Of a DNA stretch of 64,000 nucleotides, positions 7,306-60,804 are shown in pieces (the stretch's first letter is position 1; the number at the start of each line of letters is the position of its first letter). The notes below the pieces were generated by a model. The model was given only the letters and a program-made list of their open reading frames with translations. It did no database searches and was not told the DNA's origin. Both the position numbers and the translations under genes were made by a program. This stretch comes from Candidatus Altimarinota bacterium. Its GTDB lineage: Bacteria > Patescibacteriota > Gracilibacteria > BD1-5 > UBA2023. Where the stretch lies: positions 8,241 through 72,240 of the forward strand of contig JANNCQ010000085.1 of the NCBI GenBank assembly GCA_031386685.1, written 5' to 3'.

Positions 7306-7490
7306 GGGAGAGTAGGGGGAGAATTATAGAATATAGAGCAGAGAATGAAGCGTATGTGAGAATACCCAGTGCGTGAAAATCCGCAGAATTATACAAAAAA
7401 ATCTTGTTTATTCAAATCAGTGAGGTGAAAAAGAAGTGAATAGTATTGACGAATAATTAATAATCCCTCTAACTCTAGAGGGATTATTAA

Positions 7491-9783: not shown

Positions 9784-11886
<2,103 letters not shown>

Positions 11887-11912
11887 TTTGCATTAAAATA
11901 GAGTAGATATAT

Positions 11913-12263
11913 CTATCAGAGGGATATTTTTAATCAAGTAAGTTTTAGTATGGTAGCTTTCTGTATAATATCTTTAGATTCCCTTAGAGCTTTTTCCTTA
12001 TCTTGATCTTTCTGGTATGTATTCTCTATAAGAGAGAGCGCTTTTTGACTATTTTCATCGATAAGTTTTGAAATAAGGTCAAAGTTATCAATACTAATAA
12101 GGACATTTTTTGCGTTTTCCCTAAATGAATCTGCGAGTTTCTGATTCAATGCAGGATTGGTTTCAATAATCTCAAGAACTCTCGCTAAAATTTGTTCTTG
12201 TTGTTTGCTTAGGGTTTCTTTTTTTGAGGTGGGTGTGAAGTAATTTTCGAGAGTTTCTGACAT
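11913..12263 (-). CDS. hypothetical protein
   Basis: ORF 11934..12263 reads through two TGA to TAG at 11913-11915. Small, charged, helical-looking protein. Confidence 0.5.
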
Positions 12264-12370
12264 ATATATTTTTAAAAATAATACTACCCAAATAGGATAG
12301 CATTATTGTTGGTTTTTCGCAAGGAATTTCACTTGACGAAGGTATATAGTATATTTCTTCTAAGAAATAA

Positions 12371-12706
12371 CTAGTGACATCCACTTCCGCAGTCACCACA
12401 CCCACCTGTTCCACACGATCCACCTTCATTATCATGATCATCATCACCGAGGATAGATAAGAACATTGATTTGATCTCCTCATATTCAGGAACTTCGCCT
12501 TGGAATATCATATCTTTGAATTCTATAGATTCTTCTTCTATACAGAGAGCAGGAGACTCAGTAATTCCAAGTTCCATCTTATAGGCAGGGTCATTCGATA
12601 TTTTTACCGTCACGGCATCGGAGAGAGCGAGCTCACCGAGAGCTTTATTGACGAGAACTTCGAGATCTGTAAGGCTCGTGCCCTCACCGACGAGTTGGAT
12701 GATCAT
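12371..12706 (-). CDS. thioredoxin-fold protein (Thioredoxin_3/MTH895-like) with a Cys/Gly-rich C-terminal tail
   Basis: MIIQLVGEG...ELGITESPALCIEEES...GEVPEYEEIKSMF then GGSCGTGGCGDCGSGCH, stop TAG. The usual N-terminal CxxC is absent. Start taken at ATG 12706. Confidence 0.55.
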   Translation of the reverse strand: MIIQLVGEGTSLTDLEVLVNKALGELALSDAVTVKISNDPAYKMELGITESPALCIEEESIEFKDMIFQGEVPEYEEIKSMFLSILGDDDHDNEGGSCGTGGCGDCGSGCH

Positions 12707-12763
12707 AATAGTATTTTTAAAAATAATTTTCCTTGATTGTAGTCTGCTTCTTATAAAAAGCAA

Positions 12764-12787
12764 GAAAAATCCGCCAGAAGGCGGATT
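12764..12787 (-). terminator. rho-independent terminator after rplY
   Basis: atccgcc-ttct-ggcggat followed by uuuuu on the minus strand, 7 nt after the rplY stop. Confidence 0.75.
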
Positions 12788-12793
12788 TCGGTA

Positions 12794-13414
12794 TTACGCA
12801 GCTTCTTCATCTTTCTTCTTCTCTGTAGCGACACCGACGTCTGCTACTGATACAGTATCAGTTTCTTCTTTTTGCTCTCTGACGGCGTGTACTCATACGA
12901 TCGCTACTTCTGCATGAGAAATGACTTGGTATTTTTTTGTATCGACTATAAGATCGCTCACGTGGAGAGTCTTACCAATATGATCAATGGAAGAAATATC
13001 GAGACTAAATGAGTCAATGACATCACCAGGAAGGCACTTTACATCAAGTGCATGAAGAGACTGATGTGCTTGGCCACCTGCTACTACAGCAGGAGAAATA
13101 CCAGTAAGTACTATAGGAATCTGTACATGGATAGTGGCCTTCATATCAACTGTAAGAAAATCCATATGGAGAGGAAGTCCAGTGACAGGATGTTTTTGAA
13201 GTTCATGAATCAATACTGGGTAAGAATCTTTCCCTACCTTGAGTGTAAATACATGATTCTTGCCGACTTCGCGGAATGTACGAGTAAAATCAGAGGGGCT
13301 AATCTTGACGCTGGTCGAAGGGACATCCTTGCCGTATAGGACTGCTGGGATCGATCCGCTTTCGCGAGTATCACGAGCTGTCTCCGTACGGATCTTTGCT
13401 TCGAGAGAATGCAT
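12794..13414 (-). CDS. rplY: 50S ribosomal protein L25 / general stress protein Ctc
   Basis: MHSLEAKIRTETARDTRESGSIPAVLYGK...VLIHELQKHPVTGLPLHMDF. Reads through TGA at 12893 into an acidic tail. Stop TAA at 12794-12796. Confidence 0.85.
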
Positions 13415-34721: not shown

Positions 34722-35021
34722 ATGGATTTCAAACAAGCACAAGAAATGATGAAGCTCCAGCAACAAGCTCAGAAGATCCAAGAAGAACTCAGCAATACTC
34801 ATATAGAAGCCGAGGTCGATGGTGTCGTCGTCACGATCGATGGCCAGCTGAAGGTGGTTTCTACAGTGATCGAAGATGCCTCTATCATGAAGGATCAGAA
34901 TAAGCTCGAAAAAGCTATCACAGAAGCTATCAATAAAGGGATGAAAAAAGCCCAAGAGATCGCGGCAGATCGTATGAAGGGTGTGATGAGTTCTATGTGA
35001 CTCAATATGCCTGGTATGTAA
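34722..35021 (+). CDS. ybaB: YbaB/EbfC family nucleoid-associated protein
   Basis: MDFKQAQEMMKLQQQAQKIQEEL...VVVTIDGQLKVVS...AINKGMKKAQE... Reads through TGA at 34998 to TAA at 35019-35021. Confidence 0.85.
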
Positions 35022-35216: not shown

Positions 35217-35254
35217 CCTGAGCTACTCATATTAAATCCTAAGTTTTGACTACT

Positions 35255-35737
35255 ATGATCCCAAAGCCTAAAATCCTCCTCTCAACAAACCTTGGTGATA
35301 TCACTCTCGAGCTTTATCCTGAGTACGCACCGAAAGCCGTCGAGAACTTCGTCTGACTCACGACTAAGTGATACTATGATGGTATCATATTCCATCGTGT
35401 CATCCATGACTTCATGATCCAGTGAGGAGATCCTACGGGGACAGGATCAGGTGGTAAAAGTATCTGGATGCGTGCTTTCGAAGATGAGTTTGTGACGGAG
35501 CTCACTCATAAGAAGTGAGTCATCTCTATGGCGAATGCTGGTCGCAATACCAATGGTTCACAGTTCTTCATCGTAACGGCTGAGGATGCGAGCTTCCTCG
35601 ATCGGAAGCATACGATCTTCGGGCACGTCGTCGAAGGGATGGATGTCGTCGATCAGATCGAGTCGCTTCCTGTCGATCACAATGATCGACCCAAGGTCGA
35701 TGCGAAGATAGAGAAGGCAACGGTAGTGAGTGAATAA
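35255..35737 (+). CDS. ppiB: cyclophilin-type peptidyl-prolyl cis-trans isomerase
   Basis: ...[41 protein letters not shown]...[16 protein letters not shown]. Four Gly are encoded by TGA. Confidence 0.9.
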
Positions 35738-35799
35738 GGAAATAGTCATCAGGAAGCAGATATCAGGTATCAGATTGGAATTATTTTCACTTTTCTGTT

Positions 35800-35822
35800 A
35801 TCCGCCACCGCGGATATTTTTA
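35800..35822 (+). terminator. rho-independent terminator after ppiB
   Basis: atccgc-cacc-gcggat followed by attttt. A second hairpin attccgta-cttat-tacggaat lies at 35831-35851. Confidence 0.6.
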
Positions 35823-35862
35823 TCCATTTCATTCCGTACTTATTACGGAATCTTTATTTGCT

Positions 35863-35890
35863 TGTCATTCTGAGTGAAGCGAAGAATCTG
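35863..35890 (+). repeat. truncated S-family repeat copy
   Basis: tgtcattctgagtgaagcgaagaatctg resembles the 5' half of the S elements (ctgtcatttcgag...gcgaga.atc). Confidence 0.45.
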
Positions 35891-35961
35891 CTTTTTTTGT
35901 CTATCATCTCGTGCTAGTTAGGGAATCTTCCCCAAAAAGTACGAATCAACAAAAAATAAAT

Positions 35962-35990
35962 TTGACAAACAAGAGAGAGAGAGTTATACT
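35962..35990 (+). promoter_or_regulatory. sigma70-like promoter
   Basis: TTGACA (35962-35967), 17-nt spacer, TATACT (35985-35990). 29 nt upstream of ATG 36020. Confidence 0.55.
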
Positions 35991-36019
35991 TTGAGAGTTA
36001 TTTTTGTAACTTTCATAGT

Positions 36020-36496
36020 ATGAGTTTTTGAAAGCCTAATACAATTCCTGTAGAAAGAAGATTTTTATCCTTCAATGGGCTTAATAAAGTGCTGAGAATA
36101 GCCAAAGGTGAAGATGTAGCTGATGTTGATGTTGCTACAAAAAATTTAGTTAATGATTTAATCGCCTGAAGAACATCTAACATGGCTTTATGAGTCAGAA
36201 AAATTGTATCCAACTGATCTGCAGGAGTCCAATTTGCGCATTATACTCAGCAGCAATTTCAAGTATTATTGCAAGTTGCAGCTGGTGTTTCTTCCCATGC
36301 CGATACAGAAATTCGAGCAGTCACTCAAGCAATAGATCTGATTTTATTAAATAACCCCCAGAATCTTATACTGCTATGAGTGAGATTAGAAACGTTAGCA
36401 AGGCGAGGTGATAAGATAGTGGGAATCGCTACATCCCAGGGATCATTAACTCCTAATAATGATGATCTAAAATTCACACCTTGATGATCTGACTAA
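36020..36496 (+). CDS. hypothetical protein (158 aa)
   Basis: 159 codons open under table 25 (seven TGA), bracketed by a good promoter and a terminator. The antisense ORF 36013..36213 is shorter. Confidence 0.5.
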
Positions 36497-36544
36497 AGTC
36501 TTGAATGACAAATTAATGAGATATCAAGTATTGAAAATAATCTC

Positions 36545-36568
36545 ATCCCGACTCGTTCGGGATTTTTC
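36545..36568 (+). terminator. rho-independent terminator
   Basis: atcccga-ctcgt-tcgggat followed by ttttt. Confidence 0.7.
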
Positions 36569-36603
36569 TTGCCTTCATCCCGATTCTCTCTATCATACGA
36601 CTC

Positions 36604-36780
36604 ATGAAAGTCCTCGATCGTGGTCAGTATCGTGAGTCGAAGGTCTGCCTCGTATGCGGTCGACCTTTTTCTATGAGGAAAAAGTGGAAAAAAGACTGGG
36701 AATCTGTACTCTATTGCTCAGAAAAATGCAAGAAAAACAAAAAATCATCCTCATCTGGTACAAGCGGGATCTCCGTATAA
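36604..36780 (+). CDS. DUF2256 domain protein (small zinc-ribbon protein often linked to photolyase genes)
   Basis: MKVLDRGQYRESKVCLVCGRPFSMRKKWKKDWESVLYCSEKCKK... 59 codons, stop TAA. Confidence 0.7.
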   Translation: MKVLDRGQYRESKVCLVCGRPFSMRKKWKKDWESVLYCSEKCKKNKKSSSSGTSGISV

Positions 36781-38266
36781 GTGATCACCGTCCTTTGGCC
36801 GATGCTCTCGCTCGATGAAAGAGTCAGCATATCCCAGTGATCGCTTTCTATAGCTTCGAGCCTCGTGTGACGACTGCTCCTGATTTCTCAGATTTCCATA
36901 GACAGTTCATAGAAGATTCACTTCATGATCTTTCTCATCACTCAAGGATATATGAGTCCAGCTTCTTATCTTCGAGCGGAATATATCTGATGTGATGAAG
37001 TATATCCTCGAATACTATGATATCGAGCATATTTTCTCTCATGAAGAGACGGGAAATGCTCTCACCTATGATCGCGATATCATGATGGGGAAGTATTTAA
37101 AGTCCAAAAATATCCCCTGGACAGAGCATCCCACAAACTGAGTCGTCCGACGTCTCAAGTCTCGTGATGACTGGTCGAAGATATGGAATAGTCGTATGAT
37201 AACCCCGATACTTCCTCCCCCAGAGTGACAGAAGTATTTTTCATCATGACTCGTCTCTGATTCCTGGAAGAGCGAGGGCAGGAATCCTCATATCCAAATG
37301 TGAGGAGAAGTAGAGTGACAGAAGACTCTTGCTTCATTTCTTATCTCACGTGGGAAGCGATATATGGGTGGGATGAGCCGACCGATCGAAGGACAGGAAG
37401 CGAGCTCGCGTATATCTGCCTATCTCGCGTATGGATGTATCTCCCTGAAGCAAGTCGTCCAGATGACGTGGATTCGTATGTCAGACCTGAAAGAAAAGTG
37501 AGATCAGAGATTTCTCCGGTCACTTCAGGCATTCCACTCCAGGCTTCACTGGCAGTCACACTTCATCCAGAAGCTTGAAGATGAGCCGAGACTCGAATAT
37601 ATGAATGCCATGAAGCTCTATGATATGATCCGTACGAAGTATGATGAAGATATCATCTCTTCAGTGGAATATGCACGTACGTGAGTACCATTTATCGATG
37701 GGATCGTGAGGCAGCTCAAAGCGACTGGGTGGATCAATTTTCGTGCTCGTGCGACTCTGGTATCTTTTGTCAGTTGTACCTGTATGCAGCCCTGGCAGGG
37801 GAGATTTGCTCACTGGCTTGCGAGACTATTCACTGACTATGAGCCAGGGATCCACTATATGCAACTCCAGATGCAGTCTGGGACTATGGGGATCAATACG
37901 ATCCGGATATATAATCCTATGAAGCAGCTTCATGATAAGGATAGTGATGGACTCTTCGTCGATGCATATCTACCAGAGCTCGCCAAGCTCCCGAAGCATC
38001 TTCAGGCTGAGCCATGGAAGATATCAGGCATGGAATCTATAGAGTATGACTTCATCCTTGGGCGTGACTATCCTCATCCTGTCATCGATGTCGAAGAGGC
38101 GAACAAACAAGCTAGGGAGATTCTCTATGATATGAAGTCGCAGATCGATCCTCGAGTAAAAGAGTCTATCGTCCGAAAGCATGCGAGTCGCAAATCACCC
38201 CTGCGTAAGAAAGCAAAGAAGAAAGAAAAAGAAAATCTAGATACCAATCTTTCACTTTTTGACTAG
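36726..38266 (+). CDS. cryptochrome/photolyase-family protein whose frame is interrupted by a -1 shift near 36941 (pseudogene, sequence error or recoding)
   Basis: The N-terminus MQEKQKIILIWYKRDLRISDHRPL...SLHDLSHH is in frame 0 (stops at 37098). The rest, LKDIGVQLLIF...HEETGNALTYDRD...GVVRRLKSRDDW...RLHWQSHFIQKLEDEP...TGWINFRARA...IRIYNP..., is in frame 2 (open only from 36902). The start lies inside the 3' end of DUF2256. Confidence 0.7.
37222..37324 (+). repeat. 90-nt in-frame segment bounded by 13-nt direct repeats inside the photolyase-family gene
   Basis: agagtgacagaag occurs at 37222-37234 and 37312-37324, exactly 90 nt apart. Internal hairpin gattcctg-gaagagcgaggg-caggaatc. Encodes ...EGQK[YFSSGLVSDSWKSEGRNPHIQMGGEVEGQK]T... 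Confidence 0.6.
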
Positions 38267-38275
38267 AATATTTCT

Positions 38276-39997
38276 ATGAAAAAAGAAATCTCTCAAAAAC
38301 AAGAAATTCGAGGAAGTGAAGATTTTTCGCAATGAATTTACTGATCTGTAAATGAGTGAGAAAAATCTAATACTGCCGAAGAAGCTCGCGGTTTTTCAGT
38401 GATTTCTAAAGCTCAGTGGATTCTCTATGATCAGTGTAATATACAGTATATCGAAGAATGAGTGACCGATATTTTTTTCATACTCTTCACGGGAGTTCGC
38501 ATAGTATCTCCAGTAGGAGATCTCAGCTTCAATATCCGCAGTAAGATCGCCGAATACGCTATCGCAAAAGGGTTTCTCACTGAGTGTGAGAATCTAGGAT
38601 TTCGTACTCATTGGATAGAAGCTCAGAGTTACAAAGATGGTATACTAGAATTCGTAATAAAAACAGGAATCACTGATATCATATTGATGCGATCGAGTGA
38701 AGAGTATCTCGTAAAAAAGATCGAGAAATATATACTCCCATGAGTATCATTTCGAGTATTTCCGAATCGACAGTTTCTCATAGATCCTGAGGAGTTCCGA
38801 GAGAGATTCGAGAAGCCTCCGATCATGGAGACATTTTACCGGTATATGCGAAAAAGTCGTGACATCCTCATGGAAGATGATGGGAAGCCCGTATGAGGAA
38901 AGTGGAACTATGATAGTGAGAATCGGTCGTTCGATAAGACTCATACTCCAAGTTGGAACTGGAAGGTGAGAGATACTCAGTATATCGATGAAGCCAAAAG
39001 ATACTATGGTGCTCAGGATATCGAATTCTCACTTCCTGTGACGCGGAGTGATTCTCTGTCGCTCCTTCAGTACTTCCTCGAATATCACTATCACGACTTC
39101 GGACGCCTCGAAGATGCGATGTATCAGGATGATATGCGAGTCCACCACTCGATGATTTCGACAGCGATGAATTTCTGACTCATTACTCCTCTCGAAGTCA
39201 TCCAGTCCGCACTTGGGTATCATGCACCCCTTTCGAGTGTCGAGGGGTTCATCCGGCAGATCCTCGGCTGGCGTGAGTATATGAGGCAGTACTATCTCTT
39301 CTACTATGATGATATCTATATGCAGAATGCACTCGATCATCACGATAAGCTTCCGAAGGAGTGGTGGAGCTATGATGGATGATGAGGAAAAGCCCAAAAA
39401 TCACAAGAGTGAGTGATTTCTCAAAAACAAGAAATTCGAGAAAGTGAAGATTTTTCGAAGAGAGTTTACGACCATCTAAATGAGCAAGAAAAATCTGATA
39501 ATGACGATGAAGTTCGTAGCTTTTCAAAAATCACAATGATGAATTGTGTGGATACTGTACTGGGTAGAGTACAATCCGAGAATTATTCGCATCATATCGA
39601 ACGACTCATGATCATCGGGAACTATACACTCCTTAGAGGATATCATCCACATGAGGTGAATCGGTGGTTCTGGGAGATGTATAGTGATGCATTCGAGTGG
39701 GTCGTATCTCCGAATGTCCTCGCTATGAGTCAGTATAGTGACGGAGGGAGACTCGCGACGAAGCCATATATCTCAGGCGGGACCTATATCGAGAAGATGA
39801 GTGACTACTGTAAGGTATGTCAGTATAGTGTGAAGGAGAAGACTTGCCCTATGACCCATCTCTACTGGGATTTTGTCGATCGTAATCAGTCACTCTTCGA
39901 GAAATGACGGACTCCCTATGTCCTCTCTACCCTTGCGAAAGTCGATATCGAGAAGATCCGACTTGCGAAAGAAATATTCATCCATAAAACCCTCTAA
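38276..39997 (+). CDS. FeS-BCP-type cryptochrome/(6-4) photolyase-like protein (COG3046 family)
   Basis: ...PIMETFYRYMRK...GKWNYDSENR...EGFIRQILGWREYMR...YSHHIERLMIIGNY...WFWEMYSDAFEWVVSPNVLAMSQYSDGGRLATKPYISGGTYIEKMSDYCKVCQY...CPMTHLYWDF (four Cys for an Fe-S cluster). Four fragments are in one frame. The true start may lie downstream of the R1 repeat, around 38400. Confidence 0.85.
38285..38406 (+). mobile_element. R-family MITE-like repeat, copy R1
   Basis: About 75 percent identical to 39413..39534. Terminal inverted repeats agaaatctctcaaaaac / gtttttcagtgatttct. Confidence 0.65.
39413..39534 (+). mobile_element. R-family MITE-like repeat, copy R2, in frame inside the FeS-BCP gene
   Basis: gtgatttctcaaaaacaagaaattcgagaaagtgaagatttttcg...cttttcaaaaatcac. 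Encodes VISQKQEIRESEDFSKRVYDHLNEQEKSDNDDEVRSFSKI. An 11-nt direct repeat caaaaatcaca occurs at 39395 and 39525. Confidence 0.65.
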
Positions 39998-39999
39998 AT

Positions 40000-40503
40000 A
40001 TGCGTAAACCCTGGAATCTCCCATCCTATCCCGTCTACTCACTTCTCACGGAGGATACTCTTACGAGCAATTCTCAAATAGAGATATTCGATGAGCCGAG
40101 ATACAATATGAATATTATGACGTACGTGATCCCTGTGAGTATGCAACCGAAGCACTATATCATCGCTCTTTATCGTGATACTCAGTCTCTCGCGAACTGG
40201 CAAGTGACGCATAGAGGTATCCTCCAGATCCTCGCTCCCGGACACTCTTCGCTCGTACGAGTCCTCGGGAAGAAGTCAGGGAAGTCCTATGATAAGATGG
40301 CATATCTGAAGAAAAAATGACTCCTCACACTAGAGAATCATCTTTCATGAATTGCTGGATATATAGAACTCGAAGAGATCGAGAGACTTCCTGATGGTGG
40401 ATGAGACCACGAGCTCTATCTCTGTCGAGTCATATCATCGAAGACGTATCATGAAGATGTATTAACTACGGGGGTATTGGTGGAAGAAGGAGTGATACTC
40501 TAG
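40000..40503 (+). CDS. flavin reductase-like (FMN-binding split-barrel) protein
   Basis: ...NMNIMTYVIPVSMQPKHYIIALYRDTQSLANW...LAPGHSSLVRVLGKKSGKSYDK... Reads through TGA to TAG at 40501-40503. Confidence 0.7.
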
Positions 40504-40562
40504 AAAGATTTTGCTTTCAAAGGTATATAGTGATATATTTCTTATAGATTTATCATATTCTC

Positions 40563-41300
40563 ATGAGCATACTCAAACTTGATCCACATAATCCACTTTC
40601 GATAGATATATATGGCCCGTATGGTTTTCATCCAATAGTAGATGATACTCGTGATCATGCGCGATGGATCCTCGAGGAGTCTTTGCCGTGGGTCGATGCA
40701 AAAATAATAAAAGATATAGAAATCGAACTAATGTATGCTACTTCCGATAATATCTCATGAGTCCCTCAGTATCCTATAGGTATGAAGGCCGTACTCAGAA
40801 AAGAGGTTACTCTCATGCTGAGAGAGTCGCAAAATTATCTAAAGAGGAAGATGTGACCAGAATATTCTCTTCGTATCCTAGATGCTGGAAGGCCTGATTT
40901 TGTGCAGAAGATTATGTTTGATTGGTGCCAAGCACAAGAAGACAAGAGTATGCATACACTTTTTGCAGATCCTGAGCGTGGTTCTATGCATACTTACGGT
41001 TGTGCGGTAGATGTCACGATTACGAAGAATGGAGTACCACTAGAAATGGGTACAAAGTTCGATGATCCGAGTAAAATGGCAATGCCAAAATACGAATTAC
41101 TGCTCCTTGCAAGTGGAGAGCTAACTATTGAAGTCATAGAAAATAGAGAGCTACTTCGTGATGTTATGGAATATTGATGACTTTCGAATATTGATAATGA
41201 ATGGTGGCATTTCGAGACGCCAGATGATGAAGATGATCTCGGAAGACGAAAAAAAATACGAGATGGTTCACTACCGAGATTAAATAAGTGTTTTTTTTAA
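40563..41300 (+). CDS. VanX/DdpX-like D-Ala-D-Ala dipeptidase (peptidase M15D)
   Basis: ...IELMYATSDNISG...ILDAGRP...SMHTYGCAVDVTI...DNEWWHFE. 246 codons. Confidence 0.75.
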
Positions 41301-41434
41301 AAAATCTCTAGTTTTCATGTGAGTGACTTTTCTGAAATGAATACTAACCAGCCAATATGAAAAGTATTTTTTTTATATGAGTAAGAATGCTGATTTTCTA
41401 AATAGTTTTCACTCTATTTTTCCTCTATATAGAG

Positions 41435-41462
41435 TTGGCAATCTTCATATTTTCTCTATAAT
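41435..41462 (+). promoter_or_regulatory. sigma70-like promoter giving a near-leaderless transcript
   Basis: TTGGCA (41435-41440), 16-nt spacer, TATAAT (41457-41462). ATG at 41469. Confidence 0.6.
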
Positions 41463-41468
41463 CTGACT

Positions 41469-41804
41469 ATGCCCAAAGTGAAACTCGAACATATCGATGC
41501 CCTCTCCAGGTGAAAAAAATCAGGAATCAGACTCGGGAGTCGAGCCGTGCCACACCATCTCTATGTCTATGAGCGTGAGGAGTATGAACGAGCCCTGAAG
41601 CGAGGATATCTCATAGTCGATAAGACCGATCGAGTAAATACCCAAAATCTCTGGATGCTCGTCTGCGAATCTCGCATGTCCGAATGCCTCATCCTCCATA
41701 AGATTGATGAGAGATGAGTCGTGACGTCGGGTGCAGGGACGATATTCGTCGGACTCCTCTCGGAAGCCAAGACGTATCTGAAAAATATGAAACTCACAAA
41801 ATAA
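41469..41804 (+). CDS. hypothetical protein (111 aa)
   Basis: 112 codons, two TGA, stop TAA at 41802-41804, strong promoter. The antisense ORF 41567..41797 was rejected. Confidence 0.5.
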
Positions 41805-41831
41805 TCAAATCATATTACTCCTGAAATAATC

Positions 41832-42959
41832 ATGAAAATCCCTCACTATACATTCCCGACAGACCGAGCAAGTATCGAGGCACGTATCGACTCTATTGAT
41901 CCCATAGCTTATGGTAAAGATCGCAACTATCTCACCGGGAATGTGACGATGCTCTCCCCGTATATATCGAGAGGATTCATCACTATTCGTGAGATACGTG
42001 ATCGAGTCCTTGCTCGGGGATTTCGTGCACATCAGATCGAGCAATTCCTGAAGGAGCTTGCTTGGCGAGAATATTTCCTCCGAGTATGGGAATGACTTGG
42101 GACCGATCGTATGATGGTCGATATCCGCTTCGATCAGGAGGATGTCCTCACGCATGATATGCCACGAGTATTCTCGGATGCGAGTACAGGGATTGAAGCC
42201 CTCGATAGGTGAATAGAAGCTCTCTACGAGACAGGCTATATGCATAATCATCTGCGTATGTATATCGCAGGGATCGCATGTAACATGAGTGGAGCTCACT
42301 GGAGGACTCCGAGTCATTGGATGTACTATCATCTCCTTGACGGAGATCTCGCGTCCAATACGTGTAGCTGGCAGTGGAATGCCTGAGCTTTCTCTTCGAA
42401 GAAATATATCACGATCCAGACTAATATCAATCAGTATACCGGATCGACTCAGAGAAAGACTTTTCTCGATCGAAGTTATGAAGATATCTGGACGACGAAA
42501 GTCCCTGATCATATGCGAGAATATATACCAATTCAGTTCTCGACCCCACTTCCTGAGAGTGACGTATTTACCCTTGATCCAAGTCTGCCACTCTGCATCT
42601 ATACCAATTACTCTATCAATCCAAGTTGGAAGCAAGATATCCAATCTCATCGTATCCTCGTACTTTCGCCTTCACATTTTGCACGATTCCCTGTGTCAGA
42701 GAAAGTCATAGACTTCATCGTCCGTCTCGCGAAGGATAATATCTCGGGAATGCAAGTATTCGTATGAGAGATCGAGGATCTCAGAGATGTGTATCGAAAA
42801 ATCTCACAAAAAGAGATATACCTCGTCGATCATATCCTCTACTCGGGCATCACAGGAGTCGCGAAGACAGCTTATCCCTATATGATTCCTGAAGTGAGTG
42901 CGTATTGTACCTCATTTTTTGCTTATTGGAAGCAGGTTGAGAGGTATATGATGAGATAA
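41832..42959 (+). CDS. photolyase-family protein starting directly with the FAD-binding domain, followed by an alpha/beta-like domain (apparent permuted order)
   Basis: ...LSPYISRGFITIREI...FLKELAWREYFLRVWEG...TGYMHNHLRMYIAGIACN...LLDGDLASNTCSWQWNAG..., then ...LCIYTNYSINPSW...ILVLSPSHF...VIDFIVRLAKDNISGMQVFVGE. 376 codons; frame scan clean. Confidence 0.75.
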
Positions 42960-42968
42960 TTTGATTCC

Positions 42969-44423
42969 ATGTATTTTTCCTATATACTCGCTTCCATGCT
43001 GAAGAAGATCCTCATCACCCTTGCTCTCCTTATTTGTATAGGTACTTTTGCAGTCTTCGGTTTTGCTATTTATACTGAGCGTCAAGAGTTCATAGAGCAT
43101 ATCTCACTGCTCTCATCGCAAGATCTTATCCATCAGACTGAGCTCACCACGCTGAAAGAGAAGGTCACTCTCCTCGAATCACAGTACGCCCAAGATGAGA
43201 AATATCTCACCTATTCAGGGACACTTCACTATATCCCTCTCGACTGACTCCTCGATACTACCGCTTCAGGATTTCTGATGGCAGATGCCTATGATGCTGT
43301 CAGGTTTCACAATACTTCGACAGAGCGTATCACTCTGGATATATACGATACACAAGATATAAGCACCTCTCCACTTTTCAGTCTTCAGATAGAGAGTGGT
43401 GCAATCAATTTTTTCTCACTGAAGAAGTCGGGGATGTATGCATATAAAACAGGCGCACAAAAATGAGTGATCATCATCGGGAAAGAATACTTAGATAAGT
43501 ACAATCTTGATTCCTTCCTAAAGAAAGAGATATTCCCGCTTTTTGATCCGAAGGATCAATCGTCTATCAAAAAAGCACTCCTTCACTTTAAGGAGATCAC
43601 GATGAATAATGTTCTCATCTCGAAAAACTGCCATAACCTTGCTCATGATATCGGACATGAGTCGTTCCAGAAATACGGGTTCTCTGTCGCGATCACGTGA
43701 TGACAAGATGATGTCTGTGCCTGATGATATACGCACTGAGTACTCGAATCGTATTTCGAGTCCGAGCCCAAGCTCGTAGAAAATCCAGAGTCTGCCTGTT
43801 CGACTATTGAAGGAAAGAAAAAAGGATCATGTTTTCACTGAGTCGGTCATGGACTTATGTTCATATCTGCTAATGATATCGCGGCTTCTCTCGAAGGCTG
43901 TCGTAAACTTTCTACTCCTGTTTGGAAGAATCGATGTGCTGAGTGAGTATTTATGGAGCTCTACTCCTGAGATCCGAAGCATGCATTTTGACAAATCAAA
44001 TACTCCACGGGAGACCTCTTTGTTCCTTGTATCACTTATGGAAGTGGAAGTGAGTGATATGTCTGTGGTTTCTATGCTGGACTCGGGTATATGAGATATG
44101 CAAGTGAAGACTATATAGGAGCACTCATCGCATGTGAAAAATGATGAGTATATACTCCTATGTGTATACGATGAGTCGGTCGTGAAATCGCTAAGAGATA
44201 CATCGGAGATGCTCTCAAGCTCGAAAGTATCTGCTCGAATCTTTCAGATCAAGTTGCAAAAATAAACTGTATAAATTGAGGGGTCAGCTATACGAAACTT
44301 CAGTTCGAAGATGAAGCACATCTCATAGAAGGTTATTGTCGTGGATTCCAGTCATTTTCGGAGCTTTGTACCGGAAAAAAGATAGACGAAACGACTCTAG
44401 AATCATCAGGATCATTACTCTAA
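42969..44423 (+). CDS. membrane-anchored hypothetical protein with repeated Cys-x-x-Gly/His motifs
   Basis: Fragments 42969.., 43278.., 43467.. are in one frame and continue to TAA at 44421-44423 (485 codons). N-terminal TM helix. Repeats CHNLAHDIGHE, CFHGVGHGLM, CAEGVFME, CGFYAGLGY, CIRGVGREI, CINGGVSY. Confidence 0.6.
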
Positions 44424-44430
44424 AACACTT

Positions 44431-45756
44431 ATGGCAAAACTCCAAAATCGTAGCCTCTTCATCTTCCGTCAGGATCTTCGTACTCATGATAATACTGCGC
44501 TCATCGAAGCGATGAGAAATTCTAAAGAAGTATTTCCAATTTTTATCCATGATACTCGTGCGATAGAGGACTTCGGTATGGATGATCCTCGATTTGGCTT
44601 CATCCGAGAAGCACTTGAGTCGATCGATACTGAGCTTCAGAAAGTATGATGAAGACTGACCGTATACCGAGGAAATCCAGATGATATCGTATGAGAGATT
44701 ATAGAAAAATATCAGATTAATGCGATCTATCTGAATCGGTCATATTCTCCAAGAGGGAAGGAGCGAGATGAGGGTATTATGAATCTTTGTGACTCGAGTT
44801 GAGTCAGTTTTCATTCATTTCAAGACTTTCTCATGGTAGAGCCAGAGGAGTGTGAACAACGTAAGGTATTCACCCCATATTCGATGCTCTGGAAGAAATT
44901 TATCATAGCGCATCCTGAGAGAATTGAGATTCATGCATTCGATGGAACTCTCGCAAAATGGTATATTCCAAATGATCGACGAGAAATCGGAGATACCATC
45001 ACAGTACCACATCATCCACTCTGGACGATGCAGTTCGGTCATGAGCGCTTAGAGAGAGACTTTTCTCACTATGTTGATCTTCGCAATCTTCCAGCTATCG
45101 ATGGTTCTACACGACTCTCTCCGTATATCCGATTTGGGATATTCTCGGTACGTGAGATATATGAGAAAGTGAGAGAAAATCCGACACTCCTCTCTGAGAT
45201 TATTTGGCGAGAGTTTTGGTATCAGATAGCGTATTATTTTCCATTCACCTACTCTCTCGAATTCCAGGAACGTCGTCGGACGATCGAGTGGGATAGAGAT
45301 GAGTCGAGCTATGAGTGGGAGATGTTCCAAAAATGAAAAACGTGATATCCTCTCGTCGATGCTGCAATACGTCAACTTATACAGACCAATTGGATGCACA
45401 ATCGACTCCGTATGGTGGTAGCCTCATTCCTCACGAAGAACCTCGGGGTCGACTGGCGAATGGGAGAGAAATGGTTCCGGAAATATCTCATCGACTATGA
45501 TGAAGCAGTGAACTTCGGGAACTGGCAGTGGAGTGCAAGTGTGGGGGCTGATCCGAAGCCTGTGAGAATCTTCAATCCGCTCCTCCAATCAGAAAGATTC
45601 GATACAGAATGTAAATTCATCAAAAAATACCTTCCAGAACTAGAAGGTATTGATCCAAAAAGAATTCATACTCTTGATCTGAAGGGAGTCTATAACGCTC
45701 CAGTGGTCGATCAGAAAGAGAGTGCTGCGAAGGCGAGAGAGAGATATAGGGGATAG
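44431..45756 (+). CDS. phr: deoxyribodipyrimidine photolyase (class I CPD / DASH-like)
   Basis: LFIFRQDLRTHDNTAL...STRLSPYIRFGIFSVREI...WREFWYQ...[36 protein letters not shown]...NFGNWQWSAS...RIFNP. Three fragments in one frame. Stop TAG at 45754-45756. Confidence 0.9.
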
Positions 45757-45759
45757 TCT

Positions 45760-45837
45760 CTGTCATTTCGAGCTTGCGAGAAATCATGCCCATTTCGGGT
45801 CCATCAGAGTAGGATGTCTCCTTCGTCGACATGACGG
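45760..45837. mobile_element. S-family palindromic (MITE-like) element, intergenic copy
   Basis: ctgtcatttcgag...aggatgtctccttcgtcgacatgacgg. The termini are imperfect inverted repeats. Sits between the convergent phr and tfoX stops. Confidence 0.65.
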
Positions 45838-45848
45838 GGAGGGTGTGA

Positions 45849-46178
45849 TTAATACTTTCTCTTCTTCGTTTTCGATGGAGTCTTCTTTTCTATCGTCTCT
45901 CTCGCAACTCGCAGAAGCATATCTCGATCACCTTCGAGCCATTCAGGATTTACGGCTGCTGTATTCTTGCTTCAAGGGTAAGCCCTAGTTTCTCTATCTT
46001 CGAAATATTCGATCGTCTCAGGGAAAGTCTTGAAAAACAGCGTATTATCGCAGACGAGGGCAAACATTCGATCTCCCGAGTATATCCCATATTCTCCAAA
46101 CATCGCTTTTGTATGAAGATATTGTATTCATTCAAGGCATTCGAGGAAGTACATGAGAGTATCTTTAGAGGTTGCCAT
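45849..46178 (-). CDS. TfoX N-terminal domain protein
   Basis: MATSKDTLMYFLECLEG...KAMFGEYGIYSGDRMFALVCDNTLFFK...AYPGSKN... 110 codons. Confidence 0.7.
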
Positions 46179-46587
46179 GATTTTTCTGATTATAGTGTTT
46201 GAGGAATTCTTGAATATTTGGATATGTTTTTAACTTTTTTGCTTCTTCAAGAGTAAAAAATCCTATCTCCATACATTCTTCAGAAGAAGTAAATTCGAAA
46301 TCATTTACTCTTGTTTCATAGAGCACATTTGCGATATTCCATCACTTCAGATTCGTACTTGTATAAAAATAACTTGGTACTTGAGAGATAGAAACGACTT
46401 CAAGTCACATTTCTTCCTTGATTTCACGTTTGAGACATTCTTGAAGATTTTCACCATAGTCCACTCATCCTCCAGGAAGTTCCCAGAGTTCATTCTCTTC
46501 TTTCACCAAGAGAAAGCTTCACTCATCATTATGAATAAGTGCTTTTACAGAGAGCCGATAGAAACAAGGTGGGATAGTATACTCCAT
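46165..46587 (-). CDS. Nudix hydrolase
   Basis: Nudix box GGGVDYGENLQECLKREIKEEMGLEV. 141 codons. The stop overlaps the tfoX start. Confidence 0.75.
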
Positions 46588-46599
46588 ATAAAAGAATTT

Positions 46600-46971
46600 C
46601 TATATGATCTTGCATGGTATGATGGCATCTTCATCGAATTGGTAGACGGCACAGAGTCTATGATATCCGTCAGCAATGACGACTTTCCCATTCACTTTAT
46701 CTCGTACGAGGAGAATTGGATCGAGTGGAGTACCTTTTTTGATTTTTTCTTTATCTCGTTTTATATGTCAGTTGCTTACTCAGAGAAGCGAGAGTCCTGA
46801 AGAGCGAAATATATCTTTCGCTTTATATTCTGTTTTTGGTACTTCACGGAGGTTCTTCACCATCTCATTTACTACTTTTTCCTCATATATTAGGGAAAGA
46901 TATGACCATGCTGCAGGATAGTCATGATCTGCAGGAAGTTCATTCCAGAGGATTTTCGTTTCTTTTTTCAT
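46600..46971 (-). CDS. ParB-like nuclease (ParB/sulfiredoxin fold) domain protein
   Basis: ...TPLDPILLVRDKVNGKVVIADGYHRLCAVY... ORF 46780..46971 reads through TGA to TAG at 46600-46602. Confidence 0.55.
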
Positions 46972-46993
46972 ATAACTATAAGATTACTATTTC

Positions 46994-48790
46994 TTAGTAT
47001 AGTATATTTTCTGTATTATCAAGATCTTTTTCTTCTACATCCTCTTCGATAAATCCGTCATGTTGGAGTTCGATGAGGTGACGGTATTTCTCACTCGACT
47101 GTATGAGCTCACTATGAGATCCACTCGCGATAACTTCACCACCCTCAAGCATATATATACGGTCGACATGCTGGATCGTCGAGAGACGATGAGCGATGAT
47201 GATGCTCGTACGACCTTCCATGAGCTTCTCGAGTGAGTCTTGGATGAGTCTCTCCGTCTCGGTATCGAGTGCACTCGTCGCTTCATCGAGGATGAGGATC
47301 TCAGGATCTGCGAGGATTGCTCGAGCTATAGCGATACGCTGTTTCTCTCCTCCAGAGAGCTTCAGTCCACGTTCACCGACCTCAGTATCCCAGCCACTTG
47401 GAAGTGAATCGATAAATTCGAGGATATTTGCGTCTTTAGCAGCTTTTCGTAGCTCTTTCTCGGTAATGCCATCTCTCACATATTCGAGATTATGTCTGAT
47501 CGATTCATTAAATAGTGTGGTATCCTGGAAGACACTGGCGAATCTCTGCCTATAACTTTCGAGAGTGAGACTTTCGATATTTTTTCCATCGATTTTTATA
47601 CTTCCATGAGTATATTCATAGAATCGCATAAGGAGTTGCACGATGGTCGATTTACCACTCCCTGTATGTCCGATCAGTGCTATCTTTTCTCATTTTTTCA
47701 CTTCGATATTCACTCATTTGAGTACTTCGCGAGTCGTCGATGGATAGATGAATCATACATTCTCGAATGTGAGAGATTTTTTGATTCCCTTGAATTCATC
47801 TGTTCCATTATCTGATTCCGGTTTCATCCTATAAAGAGCTTGAATTTTTTCATATCCAGCAATATGAACCATCATTTCTTGAGTGCCTCGAAATATTTCG
47901 AATATAGGTCAGTATATTTTTTCAGTAAAACTAATAAAAAAGAAGAGAGTACCTATATTGATCGTATCTTGAAGTAACAGGAATAATCCTCAAGTTATTG
48001 TTATTGCTTGAGATAAACTTATAATAAATCAGTCTACCCCATGAAAAATTACCCAGAGTTTTCGAATGTTATACTGTGCATCTTGAGCTTTTTTGAATCT
48101 TCATTCCAGTACCTTAGCTTCGTGGCTTTCTCTAGAAAATATCCGAACCACCTTCAAATTACTAAAGGAGTCACCTATCCTATTCCATAGACTATCCCAA
48201 TAATTATTTGCCACTCTTTGGTTCGTATACGCACTATTCCCAATTTTATATATTATGAGAAATGCAAAGGGAAGTAGTCAAAGTGAAATAAGAGTCATTT
48301 CCACATTTATGAATAAGCCTGAAATGATTAGTATAATAGCAACAGCAAATCTTGGTATAATCCATAACAGTACCTTATCTCCTATATCCCAAACGGCTTC
48401 TCAAGCTCGATCGAGAATCTTTTGTTTTTCGCCATGTTGAAGACTTATATGATAATCTATTGGAAGACGCATCATCATTCACATTGATTTGATGATAAAA
48501 TTAAACCAGTCTCTTTGCGTTCTTTCGAGAAGGTACATTCCATATATGTAACGTACTCATACTGTTGCTGAAATCATCAAAAACCATAAAAAAACTACGA
48601 GTATCAATCCATTATCTATTCCTCATACACTAGCTTTATTCTCTAGTGAGTCTACTAGGTACTTATAAAAGTATGGACTAGAAGCAAGAAGTCCTATATA
48701 AGTTATCATAAGAATACTTATTCAAATCCAGGCTCTTTTAACAAGGATAAGGTTTGAAACTATATTTTTTAGAGTTGAAAATCTTGTCAT
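46994..48790 (-). CDS. ABC transporter, fused permease/ATP-binding (MsbA-like exporter)
   Basis: Six-TM N-terminal half. Walker A GHTGSGKST, signature LSGGEKQRIAIARA, Walker B ILILDEATSALD. 599 codons. Stop TAA at 46994-46996. Confidence 0.9.
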
Positions 48791-49920
48791 AGTTTTTTGA
48801 TTATTTCAGGGAGTTGTTTGAGGTTTTTTTGTTCGAGGAGGATATCTCCATTTTTTTCATATTCTTTCGCATTCCAGAATTGGTGATTGTGGGCAGAGTA
48901 GGGAAGAGGGATGATGATTTTTCTTATGCTAAATGTATCGATCTCAGCAAGAGTCGTAGCACTTCCTCTTGTGATAGCGATATCTGTAGTTCTTAGTAGT
49001 GATACGATATCTTCTTGAGAGATCCAAGCGAGAGCTTGGACATTATCTATTTCTTTAAAATCATATTTCATTGATTCATTGAGCTTCCCAAGAGAGATAA
49101 TCCACTCATATTCACTATTTCAGTGGAACTCTTGGATGATTACTTCGAAAACCGATTTTGCTCACTGACTTCCACATATTACGAGGATATGGGGTTTATT
49201 GGTGCTCCATGTTACTCATCATTTTTCACCCTTATTACGAGTTATTGGAGAGAGCATTTTTCCGTCAAATACTCTTGAGAGTATCTGTCATACTACTTCG
49301 CACTTTTTTGGATTGAAATATTTTTTTGCACCTTCAAACCCGAGAAATATGATTCGAGCAAATTTAGAGAGGATTCTATTGGATCTTCCAGGAATAGTAT
49401 CGGACTCATGAATATAGAGAGGGATTCCGAGAGACCATCCTGCTATACCGACAGCGACGGATCAAGGTCATCACTTCGAGAAGATACACACTTCACCCCG
49501 ACCCTCTCCTCAAGGAGAGTGCGATTGTTTCTGTCATTTCGAGTGGAGCGAGATAGCTAGTACACCACTTGTGGGTGAATCTTGCTTAGTACTTTTAAGC
49601 AGGATGTCTCCTCTCGTCGACATGACGGAATAGAGAATTCTCCTTGCTTCGAATATTCATGCTATGAGCACAAGCGGATAGAGAAATATTTCTGGAGAAT
49701 TCGTTGTCCTCAGTTTCAGTGTAGGAATTGACTTAAACGGGATATTCTTTTTTTTTGCTTCAAATTCCTCATTGGAGTCCTTTCCTCATATCCAGAGAAG
49801 TTCCTTATCTCGGAGATCTTCTGTGAGTGAAAGAATCGGCTGTATGTGGCCGCCAGTACCTCATCCGACGAGGATGATTTTCTTATATTTCGAGAGTGTT
49901 TCAGTGAGTTTAGGATGCAT
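48769..49920 (-). CDS. murG: UDP-N-acetylglucosamine:LPS/lipid-I N-acetylglucosamine transferase MurG, carrying an in-frame repeat insertion
   Basis: MHPKLTETLSKYKKIILVGGGTGGHIQPILS...GGPGSVAVGIAGWSLGIPLYIHESDTIPGRSNR...ICGSQGAKS...ITRGSATTLAEI... 384 codons. Reads through TGA at 48787 to TAA at 48769-48771. Confidence 0.85.
49530..49627. mobile_element. S-family palindromic (MITE-like) element, in frame inside murG
   Basis: ctgtcatttcgagtggagcgaga...aggatgtctcctctcgtcgacatgacgg. Same termini as 45760..45837. Adjacent hairpin ctctcc-tcaa-ggagag at 49503-49518. Confidence 0.65.
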
Positions 49921-50477
49921 TAGAGAAGATATTTTTGAGATTTGATTATTGCGATGACACTGGCTCAGTGAGAGATTTTGGAATCCAGAGCAAGTTTTAG
50001 GGCTTCATCGTATGGGAGAGTTCATATATTGAGTATTTCTCACTCATCGGGTTTTGCTAGAGTTGTCTGCAGTCCTCTAGCTAGGAATATATAGTTCCTT
50101 GATTTTATAACGGAAGTGAATGGATCTATATATCAGAGATCGATCCACTCTTTTGCTCTATATCCTGTTTCTTCCTCGAGTTCTCTTTTTGCACAATCCA
50201 GAGGATTCTCGCCATCATCCATGCCGCCACTTACTACTTCGAGCGAATAATCATCAATAGCATAGGCAAATTCATTGGTAGTGATGATATTATTTTCTTT
50301 ATCTACAGCTATGACAGTCACACCATCTTTCATATCAATGATACCGAAAATTCCCTCTTTCCCTCCAGGTCGAATCACAGAATCTTCACGGACTGATATC
50401 CATGGATTTTCGTAGACTTTTTTTGTCGATATGAGTGTGAAGGGATTGATCATATAGAGGAAATAATATTCCTGCAT
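49920..50477 (-). CDS. Nudix hydrolase (ADP-ribose pyrophosphatase-like)
   Basis: ...VVSGGMDDGENPLDCAKRELEEETGY... Reads through TGA at 50133. The stop TAA overlaps the murG ATG (TAATG). Confidence 0.8.
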
Positions 50478-60600: not shown

Positions 60601-60716
60601 AAAAATCTGAAAATGACGAATTTCATTGTCAGAAAAAAGTTCTCTCGATCAATTGTCTCTATCTAAGCGTACTTCGAGTCATTTTTTCTTCCTCGAACTA
60701 CTTGTTTTTGAGATTC
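60601..60716 (-). mobile_element. R-family MITE-like repeat, copy R3 (intergenic)
   Basis: Minus strand gaatctcaaaaacaagtagttcgaggaag...cattttcagattt matches the 5' 40 nt and the termini of R1/R2. The middle is divergent. Confidence 0.55.
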
Positions 60717-60804
60717 TTCTATTCTCATGTGAAAAATCCGTGAACCTATTTGGAGAAATCACTATTTTTCATATACTCTATAAGCATTTATAATTGAACA
60801 TCTT

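Follow-up and report, generated by a model that had tools for sequence, protein, structure and literature searches.

The window analysed here (64,000 nucleotides of contig JANNCQ010000085.1, assembly GCA_031386685.1, Candidatus Altimarinota bacterium) carries, among nine plus-strand genes at positions 36604–45756, four genes of the cryptochrome/photolyase family, here called CPF1 to CPF4. We consider this island, with a probability of about 80%, to be a conserved, modular photoreactivation cluster with complementary substrates in Gracilibacteria that read UGA as glycine (genetic code 25). Gracilibacteria are code-25 bacteria that belong to the candidate phyla radiation (CPR) and are thought to be epibionts. 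Both the enzyme classes and their grouping in clusters have been described before in other bacteria; their occurrence in Gracilibacteria is new, and our literature search linked photolyases neither with Gracilibacteria nor with Absconditabacteria. The argument draws on family membership, residue conservation, synteny and gene fusions observed in the sequences, from which substrate specificities, accessory roles and an ecological driver are proposed.

The cluster would perform light-driven direct reversal of ultraviolet (UV) damage and can be divided into three modules: module A, with DUF2256, CPF1 (a NewCRY protein), CPF2 (an FeS-BCP (6-4) photolyase) and a flavin-reductase-like protein; module B, with CPF3 (a NewPHL enzyme) and a 111-amino-acid (aa) protein of an undescribed family, here called unk111; and module C, with CPF4 (a class I-type cyclobutane pyrimidine dimer, or CPD, photolyase). 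By analogy with characterised members, the three repair enzymes would be non-redundant, the class I enzyme acting on cyclobutane dimers in duplex DNA, NewPHL on cyclobutane dimers in single-stranded DNA and FeS-BCP on (6-4) photoproducts; in each of them FADH−, excited by blue or UV-A light, would pass an electron to the lesion. NewCRY, disrupted in this assembly, is possibly a regulatory part (sensor, regulator or other), while DUF2256, the flavin-reductase-like protein and unk111 would be accessory partners that accompany CPF genes in more than one phylum.

Genetic code

Read with table 11, the region from 34 to 48.5 kb yields only short open reading frames (ORFs) and every gene of the island is fragmented. 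Once TGA is treated as a sense codon, the ORF-covered length of this region increases more than threefold and the ORFs of the eight genes other than CPF1 (Table 1) coincide exactly with the coordinates given in a preliminary description of the island made from the sequence letters, so that its nine plus-strand genes are borne out, though only with UGA read as glycine. Alignments with distant homologues identify the encoded residue: glycine occupies the position of TGA-encoded residue 320 of CPF1 in 91/91 homologues, of residue 139 of CPF1 in 88/91 and of residue 312 of CPF3 in 83/89, and across these alignments glycine is overwhelmingly the residue found at TGA positions and tryptophan almost never. 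Both TGA codons in the CPF4 motif ‘FQKxKTxYPLVDAA’ likewise fall on conserved photolyase-motif glycines. Because its TGA positions align with glycine, we assign code 25 to the organism; code 4 (UGA as tryptophan) was rejected on the same alignments. The closest loci among species-representative genomes are four titled ‘Candidatus Gracilibacteria bacterium’, which, together with code 25, agrees with the CPR-type genome supposed earlier.

The cluster escapes standard-code gene calling: in public metagenome-assembled genomes (MAGs) of relatives, for example, photolyase orthologues are annotated as fragments of 136 aa or 229 aa, and the stored translations (for example, that of protein P0001) use tryptophan. 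Reading UGA as sense also yields long spurious antisense ORFs, such as 41373–43460 on the minus strand.

Four members of the cryptochrome/photolyase family

Searches against Pfam, NCBIfam and the PDB all place the four genes within the cryptochrome/photolyase family, as first proposed, and no CPF locus beyond these four was found in the 64-kb window. The same description called them paralogues, which holds insofar as all four belong to one family; however, with pairwise identities of 23–31% they represent deep subfamilies and not recent duplicates, and recent gene duplication was rejected as their origin on that ground. By their sequences the four genes are assigned to four described subfamilies.

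CPF4 carries both photolyase domains (PF00875, 3.7e-36, residues 9–156; PF03441, 3.2e-65, residues 254–440) and matches the class I/III CPD photolyases of S. tokodaii (2e0i, 4.3e-76, full-length alignment), S. elongatus (1tez, 1.8e-70) and E. coli (1dnp, 4.6e-59). With these it shares the lesion-binding residues E274, W277, N341, M345 and W384 and the tryptophan triad W306/W359/W382 (EcCPDI numbering; residue list from PMC8476157), carried in motifs that include LIDYD, GNWQW and TIEWDRD. Unlike these references, CPF4 stays below the NCBIfam cutoffs, and its scores make it class I-like but an equivalog of neither the E. coli type (PRK10674) nor the 8-HDF type (TIGR03556).

CPF2 is classed, by family membership, as a prokaryotic (6-4) photolyase of the FeS-BCP (CryPro) group, in keeping with the preliminary description. 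Its Pfam match (DPRP, PF04244, 1.4e-27) begins only at residue 98, the N-terminal domain being divergent, yet similarity to PhrB (4dja, 1.9e-74), CryB (3zxs, 2.6e-73) and the V. cholerae protein (7ykn) is full-length (E 1e-64 to 1e-74) and the HH motif of this group is present (SHHIERLMI). The four cysteines noted earlier align, in a HMMER alignment, with the cluster cysteines C350, C438, C441 and C454 of PhrB, and they are kept in six orthologues. CPF2 differs from PhrB and CryB in its divergent N-terminal domain, in a 45-aa N-terminal extension and in a 44-aa insertion derived from a palindromic element.

We assign CPF3 to the NewPHL class (Emmerich et al., 2020; PMC7736829), which the authors of a study of SPL photolyases (Xu et al., 2021; PMC8476157) state to be the same as their own. 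NewPHL enzymes are described as having an inverted topology with a Z-domain, which is C-terminal, about 150 aa long and marked by conserved tryptophan and a GFF motif, while SPL proteins are recognised by retention of the EcCPDI substrate and FAD residues and absence of W306 of the triad. The preliminary description had noticed that CPF3 lacks the usual N-terminal domain, and its recognisable similarity is indeed restricted to its N-terminal half: Pfam FAD_binding_7 (1.6e-19) matches residues 72–202 only, and PDB sequence similarity is confined to residues 27–203. An AlphaFold2 model with a mean predicted local distance difference test score (pLDDT) of 95.1 and a predicted template modelling score of 0.93, built on the tryptophan-translated P0001 (4 residues differ from the glycine translation), shows helices at 12–203 and then a confident alpha/beta domain at about 205–375; in Foldseek searches the helical domain alone matches solved photolyases, with some 205–245 columns aligned to their catalytic domains. 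Like NewPHL/SPL, CPF3 is thus predicted to have no antenna domain at its N-terminus and to place the FAD domain first, followed by an alpha/beta domain of about 170 aa.

More than 5000 homologues share the length and architecture of CPF3, those in Bacteroidota being about 50% identical. Invariant positions are E75, W78, N139, M143, W157, D170, D172, N176, W180, W182 and F362, of which the series from E75 to W182 corresponds in order to E274, W277, N341, M345, W359, D372, D374, N378, W382 and W384 of EcCPDI, so that substrate and FAD residues are kept as in NewPHL/SPL; W306 is counted as missing without explicit mapping. S361, F363 and W366 are nearly invariant (at least 90%) and form a C-terminal motif SFFxxW, unlike the GFF of the described Z-domains. 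CPF3 has no Fe-S cysteine set, a lack of all four cysteines that it shares with the Bacteroidetes and A subgroups of NewPHL/SPL, and it occurs, like members of that class, beside class I and FeS-BCP genes and not DASH. Unlike described members it is here always preceded by unk111, a gene not found in the available portions of the two papers. Among NewPHL enzymes, only those of D. shibae and M. mesophilicum have been shown to repair CPDs specifically in single-stranded DNA (PMC7736829).

CPF1 is placed in a prokaryote-specific group named NewCRY in PMC7736829 and ‘DASH-like’ in PMC8476157, of which V. cholerae Cry2 is an example; NewCRY was defined as lacking E274 and N341 (PMC7736829). A repaired 513-aa CPF1 sequence shows the same two-domain plan (FAD_binding_7, 3.6e-49; DNA_photolyase, 1.8e-17) and the same replacements. 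In EcCPDI numbering its substitutions are E274 to R, N341 to F, M345 to A, N378 to H, W384 to M and W382 to L; across 115 family members the changes to F, A, H and M are invariant or nearly so (F at N341 in 115/115), position 382 is a variable hydrophobic residue (L/I/V/F/C) and the family is also without W306. The arginine at E274 is read from the Pfam register, which sets FHSRLHW against LSEIIW. Since NewCRY is without the lesion-binding residues, CPF1 would not be a canonical photolyase. The best NCBIfam match is crypto_DASH, far below its cutoff, and the assignment was made from residues and published descriptions.

Unlike the reference NewCRY members, CPF1 is frameshifted in the window. 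The preliminary description had reported at 36726 a CPF protein with the RLHWQSHFIQKLEDEP motif; its identity as a CPF member stands, but the ORF at 36726 stops at 37100 and the motif lies in another frame (ORF 36992–38266). The first 72 codons occupy one frame and the remainder the −1 frame, and DNA alignments to the related loci L005, L007, L002, L006 and L001 place a net deficit of 1 nt at 36930–36945, near 36936 (context CTTTCTCATCACTCAAGG), outside any homopolymer. In five orthologues one frame runs through the gene, and that of L004 is split at a different site (about 6684–6700); intact orthologues measure 512–548 aa and are 73–83% identical. Programmed frameshifting was rejected, as a slippery heptamer is absent, five orthologues occupy a single frame and the L004 gene is split elsewhere. 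The other long genes of the window are intact, and we therefore take the shift to be either a single error of assembly or a mutation that arose very recently; with L004 considered too, the NewCRY frameshifts could represent recurrent inactivation or assembly errors.

CPF1 is also the starting point for a different view of the cluster, in which it serves mainly for light sensing or signalling and cryptochrome-type proteins steer behaviour or gene expression instead of repair. CPF1 belongs to a family without E274, N341 and the proximal tryptophan of the triad, for which signalling is the only role considered feasible in the literature (PMC7736829), and FeS-BCP members were first named cryptochromes (CryB). 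Three of the four CPF proteins, however, have complete catalytic and lesion-binding residue sets, the sole cryptochrome-like member is the one that is frameshifted here, and Pfam and NCBIfam scans of the cluster found no encoded transcription factor or signalling domain. We regard a mainly sensory cluster as improbable; the light sensing raised in the preliminary description has NewCRY as its one basis and is weakly supported.

A palindromic element within coding genes

CPF2 measures 573 aa, against about 485–490 aa in most orthologues. Its 45-aa N-terminal extension is common to L005 only, and its 44-aa in-frame insertion, absent from six orthologues, interrupts the catalytic domain between PhrB positions 343 and 346, just upstream of the first Fe-S cysteine, with the ORF remaining open. 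Both segments are copies, 80–82% identical, of an imperfectly palindromic repeat element of about 120 nt (copy 1, nhmmer 1.9e-36, hairpin z-score −3.3 and 133.5 bits with a covariance model (CM); copy 2, nhmmer 1.1e-33 and 125.5 bits with the CM). Six non-identical copies were recovered at nhmmer values from 1e-14 to 1e-36. The element folds whole as one hairpin, with z-scores of −2.2 to −4.5 in 4/6 copies, and compensatory changes are seen in 15 of the 41 pairs of its consensus hairpin. An Rfam search of 35500–47000 found no known RNA and no match to the element.

Among the other copies, one at L005 7518–7648 occupies the CPF2 5′ end, the same place as copy 1 of the window, while those at L002/L003/L008 6833–6963 and L001 4920–5050 form in-frame insertions of 36–40 aa in flavin-reductase genes. 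Coding copies always use the same reading frame, giving the peptide ...SQKQEIRxSEDFS...EKS...RSFS. A further copy in the window (60601–60721, minus strand) contains an in-frame stop codon and is therefore probably non-coding, and there is a weak match at an intergenic site of the Suf operon in L025 (14960–15082). Rickettsia palindromic elements reportedly sit in-frame in coding genes, in work by Ogata and co-workers from 2000. The element found here resembles them as a multi-copy imperfect palindrome of about 120 nt located both in-frame in ORFs and between genes; it differs in host phylum and genetic code and in the handful of copies seen so far, and the likeness is one of behaviour. The cluster exposes what appears to be a selfish element of this kind colonising coding sequences in this phylum.

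In a neighbouring MurG-like glycosyltransferase gene (48769–50025, minus strand), the Glyco_transf_28 N-terminal domain is matched in two stretches with low-complexity KSTKQDSPTSGVLAISLHSKGQKQSHSPGGEGRGE between them, a segment that may be another in-frame insertion.

These insertions, together with the frameshift, raise the alternative that the cluster is decaying in this strain, as the relic of a sunlit ancestor now under relaxed selection. CPF1 is frameshifted, its L004 orthologue is split too, at another site, and palindromic elements of a selfish kind have entered CPF2 of the window and the flavin-reductase genes of L001 and L002. Yet these insertions do not break the reading frame, the accessory genes are intact, as are CPF2, CPF3 and CPF4, one assembly error could account for the CPF1 frameshift, and CPF1 equals the intact genes in conservation, with 84% identity to L005 compared with 85% for CPF3 and 84% for CPF4. 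Decay of the cluster seems to us unlikely.

Conservation and origin of the cluster

The gene order DUF2256, CPF1, CPF2, flavin-reductase-like gene, variable slot, unk111 and CPF3 recurs in six related Gracilibacteria loci (L001, L002, which is on the same contig as L008, L004, L005, L006 and L007), with CPF4 next in 4/6. The housekeeping flanks are kept in these six contigs as well: upstream YbaB (34722–35021) and cyclophilin (35246–35737), downstream NUDIX, an ABC transporter and MurG. In L024, from a Gracilibacterium less closely related, FeS-BCP and NewCRY share a 9-kb stretch with an unk111/class I/DUF2256 group, and in L025 NewCRY adjoins NewPHL.

Similar neighbourhoods exist in freshwater Bacteroidota. 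NewPHL, NewCRY, DUF2256 and FeS-BCP stand in a row in L011, L013, L014 and L015, and NewPHL, a flavin-reductase-like gene, DUF2256 and FeS-BCP in L009; the adjacency of the former four genes is seen in MAGs of Crocinitomicaceae and Flavobacteriales. The Gracilibacteria cluster differs from these in gene order, in the added class I photolyase and unk111, and in its recoding of UGA as glycine. Published surveys report class I/III photolyases in 94% of SPL carriers, FeS-BCP in 85% and DASH-like proteins in 36%, and an SPL/FeS-BCP operon in Cyclobacterium marinum (PMC8476157); NewPHL is nearly always found beside class I or (6-4) photolyases and rarely with DASH (PMC7736829), and marine Flavobacteriia have multiple CPF genes (PMC3595038). 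From this co-occurrence and from the Bacteroidota neighbourhoods, we conclude that the CPF complement of the island is standard for NewPHL-bearing bacteria, so that investment in four such genes, which had been thought unusual, is not.

The Bacteroidota likeness invites the alternative that the island is foreign: a piece of Bacteroidota DNA brought in by mis-binning or as part of a chimera, or DNA acquired horizontally very recently and still outside the biology of its host. The best homologues outside Gracilibacteria are from Bacteroidota (44–55% identity for NewPHL, 44% for the flavin-reductase-like protein), Bacteroidota share the neighbourhood, and the guanine-plus-cytosine content is 0.434 in the island against 0.41 in the flanks. 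Each island gene except the 58-aa DUF2256, however, contains 2–16 in-frame UGA codons, impossible from a standard-code donor, and because UGA density is equal in island and flanks (18.4 vs 18.1 per 1000 codons), the genes appear native or long-resident and not contamination. The insertion site and flanks are, moreover, the same in six MAGs whose proteins have diverged to 68–85% identity. We consider a foreign island very improbable; an ancient transfer is compatible with a conserved photoreactivation cluster.

Accessory genes and inserts

DUF2256 (Pfam 62.5 bits vs a gathering score of 25) adjoins CPF genes in each of the six Gracilibacteria loci, in L009–L015 and L021 of Bacteroidota, and in L024; across Gracilibacteria and Bacteroidota its neighbours are NewCRY, FeS-BCP or class I photolyase genes. 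Our literature search returned no paper joining DUF2256 and photolyase.

The flavin-reductase-like protein matches PF01613 at E 1.4e-08 (35.4 bits vs a cutoff of 27), has no NCBIfam match and reaches only E 0.13 for its best PDB match. Its gene follows that of FeS-BCP in all six Gracilibacteria loci; a homologue of 44% identity in Cyclobacteriaceae (L009 11943–12416) lies between NewPHL and DUF2256/FeS-BCP, and one of 36% identity (L026 7380–7880) follows right after an unk111::NewPHL fusion. This distinct subfamily, which keeps an N-terminal RKPWNLPxYPVYSL motif, thus occurs within photolyase clusters in three lineages unrelated to one another (Gracilibacteria, Cyclobacteriaceae and the standard-code organism of L026).

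No Pfam family matches unk111. Its gene stands immediately upstream of NewPHL in seven Gracilibacteria loci (the window and six relatives) and upstream of the class I photolyase in L024 (13197–13526). It is fused to a NewPHL-type N-terminus in P0297 (460 aa), P0336 (445 aa) and P0315 (338 aa), and L026 carries an unk111::NewPHL fusion at 6001–7383 with a NewCRY-like gene nearby. Close relatives number about 29, all unannotated and one of them labelled Gracilibacteria, and a profile search reaches 92 clusters; there are weak matches in algae (Bigelowiella, Triparma). A structural model has moderate confidence (pLDDT 76), with the invariant, basic GKKSGIRLGSR segment (family consensus GKKSGIxxGSR) predicted to be disordered, and Foldseek gave no significant match for it, the best being the C-terminal half of UvrC at E 0.16.

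Because of the fusions (a Rosetta-stone argument) and the gene neighbourhood, unk111 and the flavin-reductase-like protein may work with NewPHL. We tentatively suggest, at rather less than an even chance, that the island provides hitherto unrecognised accessory machinery for NewPHL, itself poorly understood, in which unk111 would be an obligate DNA-targeting or regulatory partner and the flavin-reductase-like protein would load or reduce FAD.

The VanX-like and Cys/His-repeat genes of the preliminary description are present, but they are not conserved island members and are better described, from their distribution, as unrelated, lineage-specific inserts. The VanX-like protein matches Peptidase_M15 (PF01427, 1.7e-22) and scores 100.7 bits for NCBIfam DdpX, below the cutoff of 176; it lacks an orthologue in the corresponding slot of all six related loci. 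This variable slot (40503–41469 in the window) is empty in L002, L005 and L006, holds a superfamily-1 helicase and a DUF4011 protein on the opposite strand in L001 (5440–9979), and in L007 (7801–9625) contains about 1.8 kb of DNA unlike any island gene. The Cys/His protein has an orthologue in L007 only (11765–13189, 62% identity), also upstream of CPF4. It has a hydrophobic N-terminus and about seven spaced Cys-x2-Gly-x2-(His/aromatic)-Gly-like repeats, among them CHNLAHDIGHE, CAGGYTHGVLE, CFHGVGHGLM and CAEGVFME, and matched nothing in Pfam, NCBIfam or the PDB.

The genes of the island (Table 1) are closely packed, with gaps of 2–27 nt except for 59 nt before the VanX-like gene and 168 nt before unk111, and the 3′ end of DUF2256 overlaps the start of CPF1 by 55 nt. 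A promoter-like site lies in the 168-nt gap, 7 nt upstream of unk111, and suggests the possible start of a second transcription unit running from unk111 through CPF4. Consensus promoters in the region are not more frequent than in shuffled sequence, and terminator-like sites are about 2 standard deviations above that expectation; operon boundaries are tentative.

Table 1. Features of the island and the evidence for each (window coordinates).
Feature	Coordinates	Strand	Evidence
DUF2256, small Cys-rich protein, 58 aa	36604..36780	+	Pfam PF10013, 3.9e-17
CPF1, NewCRY/‘DASH-like’ prokaryote-specific member (assigned by residues), frameshifted	36726..38266	+	Pfam PF00875 and PF03441 on repaired 513-aa sequence
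CPF1 frameshift site	36930..36945	+	Three-frame translation, DNA sequence, orthologue alignments
CPF2, predicted FeS-BCP/CryPro-type prokaryotic (6-4) photolyase, 573 aa	38276..39997	+	Pfam DPRP; PDB matches
Palindromic repeat element copy 1 (CPF2 N-terminal extension)	38278..38408	+	Direct repeat D1, nhmmer, hairpin, CM
Palindromic repeat element copy 2 (CPF2 in-frame insertion)	39407..39536	+	Orthologue alignment, nhmmer, CM
Flavin-reductase-like split-barrel protein, 167 aa	40000..40503	+	Pfam PF01613
M15 D-Ala-D-Ala dipeptidase-like (VanX-like) protein, 245 aa	40563..41300	+	Pfam PF01427
Promoter-like site TTGGCA-16-TATAAT	41435..41462	+	11/12 consensus match
unk111, 111-aa protein, undescribed family	41469..41804	+	Synteny, fusions
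CPF3, predicted NewPHL/SPL photolyase, 375 aa	41832..42959	+	Pfam FAD_binding_7, residues, AlphaFold2 model
Cys/His-repeat protein, 484 aa	42969..44423	+	ORF; 16 in-frame UGA codons
CPF4, predicted class I-type CPD photolyase, 441 aa	44431..45756	+	Pfam PF00875 and PF03441; PDB matches

Habitat

The GTDB species representatives with a close CPF3 are four MAGs named GL51_DN, GL52_DN, GFS_7187 and OTE_70. GFS commonly abbreviates glacier-fed stream, and from their names we infer that the GL and GFS genomes come from glacier-fed streams and the Vanishing Glaciers project. MAGs of that project are public (PMC12684718). OTE denotes the Otemma proglacial floodplain, from which MAGs were binned with MetaBAT2, fitting the isolate name, and UV exposure is reported for alpine streams (PMC12993515). 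An illuminated niche, as the preliminary description supposed, is therefore plausible from the glacier-stream-style names of relatives, a strongly illuminated one being likewise plausible rather than proven, and sunlit glacier-stream biofilms would be the ecological driver.

Discussion

Several points weigh against reading the island as a working photoreactivation cluster. CPF1 scores below the NCBIfam equivalog and subfamily cutoffs, and CPF4 below the equivalog cutoffs for PRK10674 (265 bits vs 506) and TIGR03556 (280.4 vs 884.6). The CPF1 frameshift and the CPF2 insertion beside an Fe-S ligand may leave module A partly non-functional in this strain. The activities, cofactors and expression of the CPF proteins are predictions from sequence and analogy, and the accessory roles are deduced from neighbourhood and fusion. 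The illuminated niche is drawn from the isolate names of relatives, and glacier-fed stream water can be turbid, attenuating light (PMC12684718).

A modular photoreactivation cluster nonetheless remains our preferred explanation of the island, and it would mean that some Gracilibacteria, although their genomes are severely reduced, retain a complete photoreactivation set for three substrates, which fits a life in stream biofilms exposed to the sun. If the proposed accessory machinery is real, it could help an ultra-small cell that is auxotrophic for flavin to maintain active photolyases. Of the leads, the accessory genes and the in-frame palindromic element are the more novel; those for photolyase biology include a new small protein or fusion domain as a candidate partner of NewPHL, a subfamily of flavin-reductase-like proteins linked to photolyases and the unexplained association of DUF2256 with CPF genes.

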